Made by a program: the position numbers and the translations under genes. DNA of 37,885 nt from a virus (Duplodnaviria; Caudoviricetes). The notes beneath the pieces are model-generated. The model had not been told where the DNA came from and did no database searches. It worked only from the letters and a program-made list of their open reading frames with translations. Position 1 is the first letter of the stretch. Each line of letters starts with the position of its first letter. This document shows positions 15,234 to 35,589 of this stretch, in pieces. The stretch is taken from positions 1 to 37,885 of IMG/VR virus record IMGVR_UViG_3300046787_000110, one strand, 5' to 3'.

Positions 15234-15629
15234 TTATGCCTTGATGTCGCCGGGTGTTGGCGTACTGGACGTGTTGCCGTATGTCGCGGGGGTCAATGCG
15301 TTACCCAAACCGTCACCAAGCATGTTGGGACCTTGGTTGATATTGGCCACGTTGGGGGCGTTGGTGATAAGACCACCTTTGCCCTGAATAGCAACAGAGA
15401 CGTCAGGCCTCGGGTGCCTGAGTGTTATGTTCTCGGTTTGAATGGCGGCAAGGCGCCACGGGTCGAACTGATCCAAGTCGTCAGGGCATACCATGAGACC
15501 GGGAAAGTTAGGATCCGATTTGAGAAGCGTGTACGACATTTTGCGATTGCAACGATCGCAGACAGCGACGGACAGTACAGACTGTCCGCGCGTGTCACAA
15601 TAAGCACCGCCGTAGTAGGCGTTACCCAT
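15234..15629 (-). CDS. Hypothetical phage protein with a Cys cluster
   Basis: 131 aa; CDRC...LMVCPD; in operon. Confidence 0.7.
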   Translation of the reverse strand: MGNAYYGGAYCDTRGQSVLSVAVCDRCNRKMSYTLLKSDPNFPGLMVCPDDLDQFDPWRLAAIQTENITLRHPRPDVSVAIQGKGGLITNAPNVANINQGPNMLGDGLGNALTPATYGNTSSTPTPGDIKA

Positions 15630-15907
15630 TATCGAACTCCGGCTTGGATGACGGTGATCGTGGAGTTAGTGCCACCAGTTACCTGAATAGCCCGGAAAGG
15701 CTGATTCACGATAGGGCTGGCAGGCGCCGCAACCCAAGTCATCACTGGCGGCGTGGGGACTGGGTAGCCTTGCGCGTTCAGGGGGAATGGGTCTGTGTAT
15801 GAGATCTGCGCAGTACCGCCGCCGGTGACAACGTAAGAAACGTTGACTGGCGCCACGTACTGGTCGATTGGGACGAGAACGTCCGCTCCAACTGTTACTT
15901 GACGCAT
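15629..15907 (-). CDS. Hypothetical virion protein
   Basis: 92-aa beta-rich ORF with AAGGA RBS. Confidence 0.7.
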   Translation of the reverse strand: MRQVTVGADVLVPIDQYVAPVNVSYVVTGGGTAQISYTDPFPLNAQGYPVPTPPVMTWVAAPASPIVNQPFRAIQVTGGTNSTITVIQAGVR

Positions 15908-15915
15908 GTCAGTCC

Positions 15916-16362
15916 TTAGTTGTTAGTGTAGCCGTTGCCGACGGGTGTAATTGTGCCGTCAGGGTTACGTGGTGTGTACATCACAGACAACACGCCAATA
16001 GCACTGGCGCCGGCTGTGAAAGACACTGTTTTGTCTGTTGTGCCAATGTTGGCCAACAAAGCGGCTTGGCCTGCTGTCAACGTACCGGTGTTTACACCAG
16101 CGGCGTCAGACAAAGTAGCAACAGTTGTACCGCCCAAAGTCACGTTAGTGGCTGAAGGGGAACCTGCGGCTGTGGCCACGTAGCTTGTGAAAGAGTGAAC
16201 GATTGCGCCAGCGGGCAAAGTCAATGTAGCGGCTGTGCCACCAACAAAAGCGACTTGCTGTGTGCAGACGGAGGCGCCAGTGTTATCTGGGGCGATTGTG
16301 CCGTCGTTTGTGGGGTTGTTCCGCTTGAAAATGCGGATGGGGGTATTAAAAGTAGATGACAT
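15916..16362 (-). CDS. Putative minor capsid/virion protein
   Basis: 148 aa, Thr/Ala/Gly-rich; first gene after the capsid gene, with its own late motif. Confidence 0.65.
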   Translation of the reverse strand: MSSTFNTPIRIFKRNNPTNDGTIAPDNTGASVCTQQVAFVGGTAATLTLPAGAIVHSFTSYVATAAGSPSATNVTLGGTTVATLSDAAGVNTGTLTAGQAALLANIGTTDKTVSFTAGASAIGVLSVMYTPRNPDGTITPVGNGYTNN

Positions 16363-16376
16363 TTTTTAAGTACTTT

Positions 16377-16439
16377 CCATAGAAAGATTACAGCACTGTC
16401 TCTATGGCGTAGCCCGTGAGCCGTACGGGTTCAGTGCTG
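16377..16439 (-). ncRNA. Candidate structured 5' leader with a pseudoknot
   Basis: CAGCACTG/CAGTGCTG 8-bp stem enclosing a CCCGT/ACGGG hairpin; internal CCATAGA is complementary to downstream TCTATGG. Confidence 0.45.
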
Positions 16440-16447
16440 ATGAAGGC

Positions 16448-16487
16448 TCCTACATAGAATTACCCACATCCACAAACAAAAACGCCC
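16448..16487 (-). promoter_or_regulatory. Putative phage late promoter, copy 3
   Basis: GGGC-GTTTTTGTTTGTGGA-TGTGGGTAATTCTATGTAGGA on - strand. Confidence 0.7.
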
Positions 16488-19690: not shown

Positions 19691-20119
19691 TTATTCAACA
19701 AATGCGGGGAACATAGTCCTCGCTGTTTCAAAATTATCAATTGCACAAATAACCTCGCGGTCTTGCAAAATGATAAACACTACTTCGCCGTCACCGTGCG
19801 GTACCGCCCAGCGGTCGCCACCGTACTTGATCACGCGAACTAAATCTCCAACCTCTGCCCAAGCGCCTTCCGGCCATGGTTGCAGTGTGTTGAGATCTTT
19901 GTAAGCCAAGGGACCTACGCCGACCACCTTTGCGATTACCTCGTTCCATTTCTCTGTGGCTTTGGTGTCATTCACTAGAATGATGCCGCCCTTCGAAACG
20001 TCCTTGGCTTTTCGCAACTGAACGATGATTCGGTTGCCTTTCAGCTTTACCCCCGGATCAACAACCGGAAAACAGTCGGCTTCGCTCCGACCATCTACTT
20101 GGTACTTACTCTCTGTCAT
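19691..20119 (-). CDS. groES: GroES/Cpn10-like co-chaperonin
   Basis: GNRIIVQ...SKGGIIL (mobile loop)...KVVGVGP...EVGDLV...KYGG match the Cpn10 pattern; start chosen at the ATG with a GAGGA RBS. Confidence 0.85.
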   Translation of the reverse strand: MTESKYQVDGRSEADCFPVVDPGVKLKGNRIIVQLRKAKDVSKGGIILVNDTKATEKWNEVIAKVVGVGPLAYKDLNTLQPWPEGAWAEVGDLVRVIKYGGDRWAVPHGDGEVVFIILQDREVICAIDNFETARTMFPAFVE

Positions 20120-20306
20120 TGTCAGATTCCTCGTCCTCTCGCAGGACACTGTTGATAATTTCCAAAGCCTCTTTCAGACCTTGGCCTCTCCCTACAAGCT
20201 GGTTGTATTTATCCCAGCTATCGACTCCGCTCAAAACGCCGTTTTGTAAAAACTCAACAGCTTCTTTGATCCTGAAGATCGATTCATAGATGGGGTCTTT
20301 CACCAC
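20106..20306 (-). CDS. Small helical hypothetical protein
   Basis: 66-aa ORF overlapping both neighbours. Confidence 0.65.
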   Translation of the reverse strand: MVKDPIYESIFRIKEAVEFLQNGVLSGVDSWDKYNQLVGRGQGLKEALEIINSVLREDEESDNDRE

Positions 20307-25732: not shown

Positions 25733-27178
25733 TCACGCCGCGTAGGGGTTATTCACCCGATTTCGCGATATGTCGTCCGCATGGACGTAGTCCCTTGCCG
25801 GCATTGGGTCTAGTTGCAACCAACCTGAGTCGCGCAAGACCCTCAAAGCCTGTGAAAGTGCGTCAACGTAGTCGTCGTGGCCCTTTGCTTCAGGGAACGA
25901 ACACACCTGACGAATGAAACGCTTGGCCCATGGGGCTACCTCGCCCGGGTTCTCTGGGTCCTCTGGCACGTACACCCGACCTTTTGCAATCAGAGGCGCC
26001 ACAATGTTCATCCTCTGCACCTTGTCGGCTCGTCCGGGGTTGTAAGACCGCACTGGCAGGTGCGCGGCCTGCAACTCTTGGATCAGCGAAATGCCCGCGG
26101 ACTTGTCTTCCATGAGAATCAGGTCCGTTTTCTTGCCTTTTGCAAACGTGTTGTCCGCGCCGTACACCACTTCCTTGTAGTCCTCGATCACTTTGCGGCG
26201 CAACTCCGGATAAGACAGGTGGTTGTCCCATGCGTCCAGCAGTATGCAACTTGTCGCGAAGTCTTCTTGCTCGAATACACCAAGCGCGATGCACGCGGTC
26301 GGGTCGTTGTGTGTCTTCTCGGACGTTGCAGGGTCATACGACACCAGCACATACTCCAAGGTCGGCGTTGGTTTGTTTGCCGGCCAGTTACGGAACCACT
26401 TACGCTTGACGATACCCGCGTTCTCAGGGTCCAAGATCTCGCCGTAGATCTCTTGCCTGCCTAGGTCGGTGCCCTCGTACGCCTCCAACTGCTTGAAGAA
26501 CGTGGACGAGAGGTTGGACCGGTTGTCGTATGAACTGGCGCGGCTGACGTACACGTCGCCGCCAACCTTACCCTCGTTCAGGTCCGTGATTAGTTCCAGT
26601 GGTTTGGGTGTGGTGGTGATGATCGACTGCACCCTAGCGATGCGCGGGTCGGTCAGACGCAACGTGAACTGTATCTGGTCGTACGCGTCGTCAATGTACT
26701 CGAACGCGCACAGCTCGTCCGCCCACATGCCGTGCCACTGTGTGCCCCGGAAGCGCTCTGGCTCAGACGCCGGGATGCCGCGGATCATGCTTCCGTTCTT
26801 CAACGTCAACTCAAACAGCGACTTGTTGTAGTCCTTGATCAGCGAGGAGGGGATGATGTTGAGGAGCCCCGAGTCACCCTCGAAGCAGGTTGCGCGAATG
26901 TCGTTTGATGTTGGCGCCGTCACCAACCAGCGCGTTTTGTCGTAGATGGCCGCTCTCAGTCCTAGCCAGTTGGACGCCGTGTGCGTCTTGCCTGAACCCC
27001 GGCCGGCTAGGAGCAAGAAGGTATCGTACTCCCCGTCCTCCGGCTCCCTCTGGTGGGGCAGGGCTGTTAGCTCCCACCTCACACGCCACAGGGCCAGATC
27101 CAGTTGGTCCTTCGGCCAGCCCTTGTTCTGCTCGGCAAACGCCTTGAGTAGTTTTTGTTGTGTGTCGTTCATAGGCAT
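25733..27178 (-). CDS. terL: Terminase large subunit
   Basis: Walker A AGRGSGKT, Walker B MWADE, coupling motif ITTTP, nuclease SYDPA and HDDYVDA. The start may be ATG 27172 (ATGA overlap with the upstream stop). Confidence 0.95.
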   Translation of the reverse strand: MPMNDTQQKLLKAFAEQNKGWPKDQLDLALWRVRWELTALPHQREPEDGEYDTFLLLAGRGSGKTHTASNWLGLRAAIYDKTRWLVTAPTSNDIRATCFEGDSGLLNIIPSSLIKDYNKSLFELTLKNGSMIRGIPASEPERFRGTQWHGMWADELCAFEYIDDAYDQIQFTLRLTDPRIARVQSIITTTPKPLELITDLNEGKVGGDVYVSRASSYDNRSNLSSTFFKQLEAYEGTDLGRQEIYGEILDPENAGIVKRKWFRNWPANKPTPTLEYVLVSYDPATSEKTHNDPTACIALGVFEQEDFATSCILLDAWDNHLSYPELRRKVIEDYKEVVYGADNTFAKGKKTDLILMEDKSAGISLIQELQAAHLPVRSYNPGRADKVQRMNIVAPLIAKGRVYVPEDPENPGEVAPWAKRFIRQVCSFPEAKGHDDYVDALSQALRVLRDSGWLQLDPMPARDYVHADDISRNRVNNPYAA

Positions 27179-28041
27179 ACTGTCAGGTACCCTTCACTCA
27201 CTAAAAATGTATTGTTGGGGTCTTCAAGCTTGATGTGCATGCAGGGCCGAATGTCCACGTTGGTAACGTGGGTAATCCTGCGCATCTCCTCGTACTGAGG
27301 GCGACGTACCGGCATCTGGTCTTCGACCAGCATCAGGTTTGTCCTGAACACCATTTGGAACTGGTGTTGGTGCTCTCTGATCTCCGTCCTGATACCAAGG
27401 GACTCCGTCAGGTTGTGTATCGACCTGAACAGCCGGAAGTTGCCGATGTTGAACCGGAACTTGGCCGAGACCCTACTGTGGCACTTTGGACGTGAGGCAC
27501 ATACCCCCCGGAGTATAGCCAAGCGCTGTTCAAACGATGAGAACAGGTACTCTTCTGGAATGTAATCTGGTATTTTGCCGTACGCCTCGATCAGCTTGGA
27601 TGTGACCTTCGTACGTTTGTCTCTGTGGGGATCCCCGATCCACATCCCCATGTCGTAGGGGTGCAGGGGTAATGGCTTGGCTGTGGGCTTGATAGGGTAG
27701 CACGTTGGCATCCTACACCACCCAGTCTCAATGTTGGCTAGGTTCTGTGGCGCGTAGATAGGGAGGATGTACTCTTCTTGGGTTGGGCGCTTGCGTCCCC
27801 ACTTGACCAGTGTGGCAAAAGACCGCTTGTCGTACACCGGAATGCCGGTGCGGCTATCCACTACCAACGTCAAGCCGTCCTTGGTCCAGATCTTATGACA
27901 CACCACCGGCGTGTACTCCTGAACAGAAACAACTTTGACTGGCAGGCCCGTGTAATCAAAAACCTCATCCCCCGGCTTGATAAACCTCGCTAACTGCCAT
28001 CCGGCAGTGGTAGGGATGGGGGTTCGTGCATCGATTCCCAT
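27169..28041 (-). CDS. Free-standing intein-like (Hint + LAGLIDADG-like) protein with degenerate catalytic residues
   Basis: TPIPTTAGW...PGDEVFD..G.PVKV (block A-like), PYDMGMWIGD, IPEEYLFSSFEQRLAILRG, and a C-terminal block F/G-like segment ending VCL instead of HN. Confidence 0.8.
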   Translation of the reverse strand: MGIDARTPIPTTAGWQLARFIKPGDEVFDYTGLPVKVVSVQEYTPVVCHKIWTKDGLTLVVDSRTGIPVYDKRSFATLVKWGRKRPTQEEYILPIYAPQNLANIETGWCRMPTCYPIKPTAKPLPLHPYDMGMWIGDPHRDKRTKVTSKLIEAYGKIPDYIPEEYLFSSFEQRLAILRGVCASRPKCHSRVSAKFRFNIGNFRLFRSIHNLTESLGIRTEIREHQHQFQMVFRTNLMLVEDQMPVRRPQYEEMRRITHVTNVDIRPCMHIKLEDPNNTFLVSEGYLTVCL

Positions 28042-28081
28042 GTCTAATCAGAATTACCCATAGATCCGGCTGTTTGTGCCC
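28042..28081 (-). promoter_or_regulatory. Putative phage late promoter, copy 6
   Basis: GGGC-ACAAACAGCCGGATC-TATGGGTAATTCTGATTAGAC immediately followed by ATG 28041; no SD, so possibly a leaderless transcript. Confidence 0.65.
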
Positions 28082-28123
28082 TATTCCAGTGGTGGGGGGT
28101 ATACAGAGCAAAAACAGCTGTTT

Positions 28124-28261
<138 letters not shown>

Positions 28262-28474
28262 AAAATGTGAACCCGCGGCCGTCACAAATAACCATGTCAG
28301 CAGTAGGGTCTATATACTCCCGGGGGTATATGTGCACATAAATGTTAACAAAACAAACTTTTTGTAAAAATATATAAAAATTGCAAAAACTTGCTGGCTG
28401 TAGGGGCCCCCCGCCCCGGGTTGCCGATGGGACCCTAATTGGGGTGTCGCTAAAAAACAACGCCCCCGTCAGGC

Positions 28475-28682
28475 TGGCACGGATCTTGCCTTAGCAAGTA
28501 TCATGCCAACTTGGCACACAAGCAAGAAGCATGCCAAGGCAGACTGGCACGGATCTTGCATGGCTAGCAAGTATCATGCCAACGTGGCATGGCACGCATT
28601 GTGCTATTAGCAAGTATCATGCCAACGTGGCATGGCACGCATCTTGCTAGTGAGGCACGCAGGCCAAGCAAGCTTCATGCCA
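28475..28682. promoter_or_regulatory. Array of nine sigma54 (RpoN) -24/-12 consensus sites
   Basis: TGGCAY-N5-(T/G)TGC on + strand at 28475, 28545, 28590 and 28633; on - strand at 28494-28508, 28522-28536, 28567-28581, 28610-28624 and 28668-28682. Confidence 0.75.
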
Positions 28683-28700
28683 ACGTGGCTAAACGCAAAC

Positions 28701-28725
28701 GCAAATGAGAATGATTCGCATTAGC
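28701..28725. promoter_or_regulatory. Fur-box-like palindrome
   Basis: GCAAATGAGAAT-G-ATTCGCATTAGC; the 7-1-7 core TGAGAAT-G-ATTCGCA resembles the Fur consensus TGATAAT-N-ATTATCA. Confidence 0.65.
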
Positions 28726-28820
28726 AATGCGCACGCGAGGCCGAGGGGCCTGTCTAGCGTCGTTTGCTTTATATAGTGTCCTGCATTTTTTCCCAGATCG
28801 TTCGTCTAATGATGATCGCT

Positions 28821-28847
28821 AACCACCCCGAGTTGACCATAGTAGTA
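28821..28847 (+). repeat. Early cassette element, copy 1
   Basis: AACCACCCCGAGTTGACCATAGTAGTA; a short hairpin lies between it and the CAGGAG RBS. Confidence 0.9.
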
Positions 28848-28896
28848 TCAGCAGGCAAATGCTTGTTGACTAACCAACCAAACAGGAGCAAACACC

Positions 28897-29196
28897 ATGC
28901 AAACAGCATACATTCACTTCATCAAGTATTCATTAGCCAAGCAGTGCACCATTTCAGTGTTCGATGGTGAAGAGTGGCAGGTCAAACGATCCACAAGCCT
29001 CAAGGCCATCATGGACGCGGTCAAATCAGTAGAAGAGGCAGACCTGCGCGTGCGTGACAGCGAGGGTAACGTGGTCGGTTGGGCCAAGGTCAGCGCCTAC
29101 GGCCTCGAACCTGAAGAGACCATGATGGACTGGTCAGTGAACCCATTCATGGACGCATGGGACGAGGCCTATCAGGCCGACACTGAAGGCAAATGA
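28897..29196 (+). CDS. Early hypothetical protein
   Basis: 99 aa, CAGGAG RBS. Confidence 0.8.
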   Translation: MQTAYIHFIKYSLAKQCTISVFDGEEWQVKRSTSLKAIMDAVKSVEEADLRVRDSEGNVVGWAKVSAYGLEPEETMMDWSVNPFMDAWDEAYQADTEGK

Positions 29197-35241: not shown

Positions 35242-35382
<141 letters not shown>

Positions 35383-35383
<1 letters not shown>

Positions 35384-35589
35384 TGAAATCACTGGAAGAT
35401 GCACCAAAACAGGGCTTACTGCAAGACGAGCTGTCAAACAGCGAGACAAAGAGACTGAGCCGGTGGTTTGCAAGCAGACCCGACGCAAGGTATGTACTCA
35501 AGAAACAATTGGAGAAAGAACGTGATGAAAAAGCTAACAGGACTGGACGAGGCCATAATGGGCATGGTGTCGGCGATGATCGAGGGTGA
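35383..35589 (+). CDS. Possible hypothetical protein
   Basis: ATG 35383 (MKSLEDAPKQG...); long overlap with the next ORF. Confidence 0.4.

Follow-up and report, generated by a model that had tools for sequence, protein, structure and literature searches.

The window, i.e. the whole stretch of 37,885 bp analysed here, is a partial tailed-phage genome that was found in public sequencing runs of mostly freshwater origin (22 runs listed, all contigs). Its genes are arranged in two divergent arms, a leftward late arm with the genes for terminase, portal, capsid, endolysin and virion proteins and a rightward early arm of small genes without assigned function, and the gene-free gap separating both arms extends from 28042 to 28896. 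The late arm starts with a gene of 290 amino acids (27169..28041, minus strand) that resembles large terminases in their N-terminal part; next comes terL (25733-27178). The early arm starts with a gene of 99 amino acids without assigned function (28897..29196, plus strand). The 290-aa gene, which resembles a terminase N-terminal part of the intein type, is a separate frame overlapping the start of terL. Also in the late arm, a GroES homologue is encoded at 19691-20149. Neither terS nor a tRNA was identified in the window. The host search yielded no genome for the window and no host from the cluster names, and a motif guessed for a host group was not enriched over its control (5 of 41 genomes compared to 6, and 0 of 41 compared to 4).

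Within the gap, a poly(A) tract lies between inverted repeats (28124..28260), with an inverted copy at approximately 35243-35385. This element is likely a replication-origin element. The two copies bracket the array described below together with the early genes, and as a pair they could be origin-like or form the ends of an invertible segment; a D5-type primase-helicase encoded by a complete relative bears on the origin-like reading. A conserved leader precedes the early genes (copy 1 of 7 at 28821..28850, plus strand). This 26-bp leader is present in seven copies (28822, 29236, 29583, 30271, 31079, 31658 and 32646), which sit just 5' of early-gene ribosome-binding sites and are preceded by a hairpin in three of seven cases. 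By eye, no sigma70 -35 match was seen in the leader copies, and a search for sigma70 promoters found one compared to 1.6 expected by chance. The genes between the leader copies are swapped among strains. The leader is likely the early promoter and not of the sigma54 type.

Two side observations concern the relatives. The complete relative G002 (L229:7287-7799) encodes a 170-aa sigma70 fragment comprising regions 1.2, 2 and 3 without region 4, possibly a decoy or a specialised sigma factor. In addition, open reading frames of relatives encode Tad2-like, ketoacyl-synthase-like and Rap1a-like proteins (L230:1831-2175, 15422-16456; L229:9605-9928).

The nine-site array

The gap contains a dense array of sites of the sigma54 -24/-12 type at 28475..28682. 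All eight strict matches to TGGCAY-N5-TTGC in the window lie within these 208 bp, compared to a mean of 0.31 and a maximum of 2 in 100 dinucleotide shuffles of the window, and the only other relaxed match (29664) is intragenic. The ninth site is a GTGC variant at 28590..28604. The initial annotation had described nine matches, one of them with GTGC, four on the plus and five on the minus strand, and this count was confirmed in the order + - - + - + - + -.

Site 1 (28475..28489, plus strand) faces site 2 (28494..28508, minus strand) across 4 bp. They are followed by a lone -24 half site without a -12 element (28512..28517, plus strand), which is probably a truncated unit, and by site 3 (28522..28536, minus strand). 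Site 4 (28545..28559, plus strand) faces site 5 (28567..28581, minus strand) across 7 bp, and site 6, the GTGC variant on the plus strand, which reads TTGC in the strain of run X9, faces site 7 (28610..28624, minus strand) across 5 bp. These three gaps agree with the three convergent pairs of 4-7 bp described before, to which a fourth, previously unlisted pair has to be added: site 8 (28633..28647, plus strand) faces site 9 (28668..28682, minus strand) across 20 bp. The divergent, back-to-back gaps are 8, 8 and 8 bp, and the single tandem gap is 13 bp.

The array units in the window are near-identical tandem duplicates. Since overlapping contigs of one public run, possibly the origin of this DNA, span the array with zero letter differences and variants of it are present in runs from two other studies, the array is not an assembly artefact. 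Strains in other runs showed nine substitutions inside the array, none of them in core bases (P 0.036 if independent). This drift of the spacer bases but not of the core bases argues for selection on each copy and against neutral expansion. In one strain, 72 bases at the left end of the array are replaced by 148 others. The array strand folds better than shuffles (z -3.7), and no Rfam structured RNA came close to its gathering score. A reading as structured RNA was rejected, since folding is expected from inverted repeats and the pairing partners are not conserved in order.

Conservation in relatives and the identity of the binder

Relatives were picked by their terminase alone, and the best 80 of 161 loci were used (74 tabulated, six with the match cut by the contig start). 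Among these, 29 of the 30 relatives with at least 1.9 kb of upstream sequence showed at least two sites in the equivalent gap; the sole exception, L192, has zero sites. L130, L132 and L179, which have 1.6-1.8 kb of upstream sequence and lack sites, were excluded, as they probably end short of the array. Two shorter loci chosen for showing sites were added, resulting in a working set of 32, of which 31 have sites. These counts are not independent, because the relatives are kin with terminases 76-98% identical. For the analysis of spacing, the removal of six loci without anchor and two duplicates left 24 unique gaps.

In these 24 gaps, GG-N10-GC (GGCA...TGC) occurred at 156 sites in 23 gaps, compared to 5.3 in shuffles. 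A spacing of N9 gave no site and N11 gave two. The spacings N14 (24 sites) and N18 (17 sites) were also above shuffles, which probably originates from neighbouring array units. The full sigma54 consensus reaches beyond the GG/TGC core and includes secondary positions. At positions that had not entered the search, the sites fit this consensus, with T-26 at 0.80, Y-21 at 0.96, G-20 at 0.87, T-15 at 0.86 and W-11 at 0.89 over 128 distinct contexts and 72 distinct cores. According to the available part of PMC3844500, GG at -24 and TGC at -12 with a spacing of 10 bp form the core of a sigma54 site, and the E. coli sites tabulated in the accessible part of PMC4591121 are in line with the full consensus.

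The exact palindrome of the window is present in only 9 of 32 relatives, and TGCCA-N3-TGGCA in 15 of 32. It had been proposed that conservation of the palindrome alone would point to an operator; in the relatives, it is the palindrome that is lost, whereas the spacing and the consensus positions outside the search anchor persist, as expected for an RpoN-type motif. Facing sites are 3-8 bp apart in 42 of 54 distinct pairs, and this variation of the gap excludes a fixed dimer site. Furthermore, neither a sigma54 DNA-binding domain nor an activator domain was found in five related records, two of them rated complete. Taking together the spacing, the consensus, the lost palindrome, the varying gaps, the spared cores and the absence of a phage sigma54 or activator from these records, it is highly probable that the array sites bind sigma54, and the binder is most likely the host sigma54 holoenzyme. 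In one order, chosen from a Dechloromonas-titled MAG and a guess as host group, rpoN is present in 189 of 201 genomes (a tally including the unpublished G031), and Caulobacter, the host of the relative RW, also has rpoN.

The alternative binder would be a phage-encoded protein, such as a terminase subunit or a replication or packaging factor, whose operator resembles a sigma54 site. The gap adjoins the terminase genes and the origin-like element, and most early proteins of the complete relative have no Pfam family, so that such a binder could hide among them. However, a phage operator would hardly match the host consensus fully at positions outside the search pattern, nor would it be expected to recur as one motif in roughly 30 crude lineages as well as in T5-like phages, with NtrC and IHF boxes nearby in relatives. 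Together with the variable facing gap and the missing sigma54 DNA-binding domain, this makes a phage-protein operator highly improbable.

The layout of the sites differs between the relatives. The clade array comprises 0 to 10 sites per gap in differing order, with back-to-back gaps of 8-9 bp in 28 of 40 cases and 20 bp in 5 of 40, i.e. in clusters that differ by about one turn of the helix. In 24 of 26 clade arrays, the last site towards the early genes is directed back into the array; both end sites point inward in 16 of 26 and outward in none of the 26. In the window, the nearest gene starts lie about 240 and 440 bp from the array, beyond opposing sites or the poly(A) element, and a gene a short way downstream of a site was found only for the lone site of the relatives L181 and L184 (see below). 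The variable number and order of the sites and the outermost early-side site facing away from the early genes indicate that these are not ordinary promoters, as had been suggested initially. Considering also that the early genes have their own leader, the array does not resemble a promoter for the early or the late arm. Since the convergent gap, the number and the order of the sites all vary, bulk occupancy rather than a fixed geometry appears to be relevant.

Exchangeable boxes, possible regulation and distribution

The array had initially been considered alone, which missed Fur-, IHF- and NtrC-like boxes and a promoter in relatives. In the window, a Fur-box-like palindrome of 19 bp lies at 28704..28722; the strain of runs X4/X7 has a different sequence in its place. 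The Fur-, IHF-, DnaA- and LexA-like boxes are presumed assignments based on consensus patterns. Fur-like boxes occurred in 9 of 22 gaps, compared to none in shuffles and coding controls, and IHF-like boxes in 6 of 22 compared to 1.4 in shuffles, with none in the gap of the window. DnaA boxes were not enriched in the clade (5 of 22 gaps compared to 4.0 in shuffles) and are absent from the gap of the window, and LexA boxes were found in none of the 22 clade gaps.

For NtrC-type boxes with a correct spacer, there were 21 matches in 14 of 25 regions, compared to 4-12 in shuffles. They are perfect in L188 (two) and L193 (one) and have one mismatch in L191 (four) and L124 (one). The gap of the window contains none, and the sole match, with two mismatches, lies inside the first early gene. 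Other enhancer-binding activators share no common consensus according to the part of PMC3844500 at hand. About 300 bp past the array, L181 and L184 show three DnaA boxes, NtrC-like boxes, an IHF box and a lone sigma54 site, which is followed by a ribosome-binding site and the first early gene and lies about 2.0-2.3 kb upstream of terL. This layout would correspond to a textbook sigma54 promoter and possibly represents a nitrogen-regulated phage early promoter. Together with the NtrC boxes it strengthens the sigma54 reading and at the same time keeps the regulatory rival alive.

According to this rival, the gap would be a unit gated by the state of the host, with real enhancer-dependent promoters (NtrC, PspF or other) or repression by occupancy, by which the arms would be tuned to nitrogen or envelope status. 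Besides the NtrC boxes and the L181/L184 promoter, it can refer to the lytic phage YuA, for which one sigma54-like promoter is mapped in the available part of 10.1101/2023.10.13.562163, and to CtrA sites in alphaproteobacterial phages as a precedent (available text of PMC9437464). On the other hand, the gap of the window has no NtrC box, the outer sites point inward, and all strict sites of L191 are upstream of its NtrC boxes. A single promoter would require just one site rather than nine facing ones, and the L181/L184 promoter is separate from the array. We therefore regard gating by host state as rather unlikely.

In L192, other iterated boxes are present instead of sigma54 sites. This replacement and the exchange of 72 for 148 bases in one strain suggest that the gap is a set of exchangeable modules. 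Judged from the sequences, the array is one module of a gap that in relatives also has Fur-, IHF- and NtrC-like boxes. As a separate observation, the array is replaced or flanked by other repeated palindromes in L124-L154 and L156-L199, namely a LacI-family-like box, a repeat of 20 bp and a palindrome of 14 bp. The enrichment of four additional iterated motifs is circular and does not count as evidence, since these motifs had been defined by eye on the very sequences in which they were counted.

Beyond the clade, a search of 26 of the 64 parts of IMG/VR with a three-site pattern gave 121 loci, corresponding to about 300 stretches overall. Twelve of the 80 flanked viral loci belong to the clade of the window. 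Single linkage at 40% protein identity divided these 80 loci into 30 groups, an overcount where flanks are short. The arms are divergent at 33 of the 52 orientable loci, co-oriented at 16 and convergent at 3; for the remaining 28 the orientation could not be told.

Among 185,579 cellular genomes the same pattern was present at 18 loci, all on MAG contigs. Four of them lie with phage-type genes (L206, L208, L209 and L213), nine among chromosomal genes, and five are unclear. Four of the nine are in one MAG, and two look like chance matches in coding sequence. The array is thus enriched in phages but not exclusive to them; with about half of the cellular loci among chromosomal genes, facing pairs also arise without a phage. 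Similar clusters of three to four sigma54-type sites were noticed at L207, L211, L214 and L221, all from one Deltaproteobacteria MAG, and at L219. At L211 the cluster comes after a transposase of the IS1595 family, and the cluster of this MAG may belong to the end of an insertion sequence.

The position at the point of divergence would be compatible with a roadblock or insulator between the arms, or with a mere repeat expansion of an ancestral promoter without a role for the extra copies, for which the near-identical duplicate units and the one relative without sites could also be cited. The selection on core bases described above speaks against neutral expansion. Regarding the roadblock, which had been one of the initial proposals, divergent arms send no transcript over the gap. 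In addition, transcription in E. coli was not lowered by sigma54 sites within genes (3 of 85 genes, p 0.47) according to the accessible part of PMC4591121, a study that did not include arrays. Roadblock and expansion are consequently disfavoured and, taken together, very unlikely.

The other initial proposal, a decoy, can be extended to a DNA sponge: after replication, hundreds of arrays would titrate sigma54 holoenzyme, along with Fur or other repressors, thereby damping stress responses and derepressing uptake genes. The sites are orientation-free, of high consensus and iterated, and their density is far above that of bacterial chromosomes, which showed 18-51 strict matches per 3.3-5.2 Mb in five genomes. 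A decoy role of non-canonical sites is also raised as possible in the available text of PMC4591121. In the same text, however, 135 sites bound in ChIP are given for E. coli, compared to which nine overlapping sites, or about five usable ones on a single entering genome, are few; titration would be weak at entry and possible after replication. Moreover, facing sites would waste capacity, judging from the footprint given below, and a sponge has no need for the observed confinement of all sites to one gap. T5-like phages still carry such sites, although they degrade the host chromosome (available part of 10.1101/866236). In sum, titration is clearly unlikely as the role of the array.

Genome ends and a possible docking role

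The nearest isolates are Caulobacter phage RW and its kin, with 65% identity in the capsid and 42% in the terminase; no DNA homologues in cultured phages covered over 80% of the query. The RW record contains a terminal repeat of 2,940 bp, read from the record layout, which ends in the equivalent divergent gap. The only matches in RW are three weak sites, two of them overlapping, at 65-120 bp inside the repeat end. Since a reversed control pattern also gave three matches in the RW genome, their position is only a hint. The sites are 2.8 kb from the left end and not at the tip, and RW differs from the clade of the window in that its terL is separated from the gap by terS and small genes. Nothing on the RW termini or on such sites appears in the available part of PMC11053796, which states that the capsid gene of RW was not identified; the RW 'hypothetical protein' at 49833-50744 of MK929790.1 is 65% identical to the major capsid protein of the window.

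Short matches to cultured phages (E up to 10) served only as leads for whole-record scans. In T5-like Vibrio phages, the sites are concentrated in the pre-early non-coding DNA, with DnaA- and Fur-like boxes, and LexA-like boxes by eye, among them. In VCPH, seven of nine genome matches lie at 116.8-119.8 kb beside A1/A2, including a facing pair 4 bp apart; in VPT02 all four matches fall within 2.6 kb, in pVp-1 four of five within 2.8 kb, and in the unclassified phage D419 all six within 4 kb. As these four phages were found by motif similarity, they are a selected set. Coliphage chee24 showed no strict site in 5 kb around its repeat region, where Fur and DnaA boxes are present. Box-like sequences were also seen by eye in the pre-early non-coding DNA of VPT02 (L225, 2988-4345), VCPH (L227, 2774-4047) and chee24 (L223, 2090-2960), which we take to be LexA-like, Met-box-like and ARG-box-like boxes beside those for DnaA and Fur.

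For the clade itself, no pile-ups of starts or ends marking a genome end were found in the runs, which consist of contigs only. In two runs of one study, the contigs were 1.3-1.5 times as deep over the gap as over the late arm, and in the run matching the window both depths were about equal; as evidence for a terminus, this proves nothing. Contig ends of relatives clustering at the poly(A) element were likewise rejected as genome ends and read as assembly breaks. The initial idea of a function at the entering genome end gains indirect support from the site positions in RW and the T5-like Vibrio phages, while the clade's own end was not located in the contigs.

On such sites, the holoenzyme of sigma54 forms stable complexes that start transcription only with the help of an enhancer-binding ATPase; its footprint extends from about -34 to -5. 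Based on this footprint, facing sites 3-8 bp apart would be mutually exclusive, and each facing pair would form an orientation-free socket for one holoenzyme. Since facing sites exclude each other, the array would hold about four or five holoenzymes. Host sigma54 RNA polymerase would load onto it as silent closed complexes. By analogy with RW, the gap may be placed at the inner edge of a terminal repeat, where the bound mass, together with other host proteins, could grip or shield the predicted terminal DNA just after entry. Physically, this mass could hold the DNA as it enters, cover one of its ends or mark the boundary of the repeat; a role of this kind has been proposed for DnaA boxes at the injection stop of T5.

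We tentatively propose, at somewhat less than even confidence, that the role of the array is the physical docking of silent host polymerase on terminal control DNA. This proposal builds on four observations: orientation, number and order of the sites seem not to matter, boxes of unrelated regulators can take their place, all sites are confined to one gap, and in cultured phages they are found in a terminal position, from which we infer the function. Against physical docking, the NtrC boxes and the full promoter layout in some relatives would fit regulation equally well, RW is distant and has three weak sites, and chee24 has no strict site in the 5 kb scanned. A further-reaching version is doubtful: many unrelated lytic phages would share a modular host-protein patch on terminal DNA, with silent sigma54 polymerase as the main clamp that pulls in, pauses or shields the entering genome. 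Facing pairs would make this grip orientation-free, and Fur, NtrC, IHF or DnaA boxes could substitute for it.

Compared to bacterial sigma54 sites, including silent and intragenic ones (available parts of PMC3844500 and PMC4591121), the array shares the GG/TGC spacing, the flank preferences and the expected stable closed complex. It differs in comprising nine sites in 208 bp, mostly facing each other at 4-7 bp, without a gene directly downstream and without an enhancer box in the gap of the window. A close parallel in layout is Repeat Region 3 at the T5 injection stop, described in the available part of 10.1101/866236 as a repeat-rich block without genes that carries host-protein boxes at the inner end of the terminal repeat. 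In that text a physical role is proposed for a bound host protein, only DnaA boxes are named, and sigma, RpoN, Fur and LexA do not occur. The gap of the window is likewise non-coding and repeat-rich, its terminal-repeat position being suggested only by the analogy with RW. The Fur-like box of the window weakly matches T5-like repeats (E 0.3-4), with no other sequence homology. In contrast to T5, no A1/A2 family was found among the 54 ORFs of the window or the 47 ORFs of the complete relative (the latter by Pfam only), and paired DnaA boxes in inverted repeats are absent from the gap of the window.

Host-factor sites in the gap or terminal repeat of lytic phages are likewise described in the accessible part of PMC9437464, namely the CtrA clusters of LPEG alphaproteobacterial phages and the Spo0A sites of phi29. 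In contrast to these, the array suits a sigma factor-polymerase and not a response regulator, and comprises facing pairs. The promoter P015 of the lytic Pseudomonas phage YuA, which uses host sigma54 (available part of 10.1101/2023.10.13.562163), resembles the lone, IHF-flanked L181/L184 site, but is a single active promoter compared to a bidirectional array. In the full-text literature searched, i.e. outside subscription journals and supplements, no dense facing arrays of sigma54 sites were found in phages.

Phage sites for single host regulators (DnaA in T5, CtrA, Spo0A and LexA) and the YuA sigma54 promoter were known already. The array is real, conserved, widespread and most likely composed of true sigma54 sites. 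Cultured phages for a test are available with RW on Caulobacter and with pVp-1, VPT02 and VCPH. If the clamp were true, it would also identify a host partner so far lacking for the T5-type injection stop of Vibrio phages. If the silent polymerase acts physically, this would be a new use of a sigma factor that bears on the pull-in, pausing and protection of entering phage DNA, and the rpoN status of a host could then affect its sensitivity to phages.
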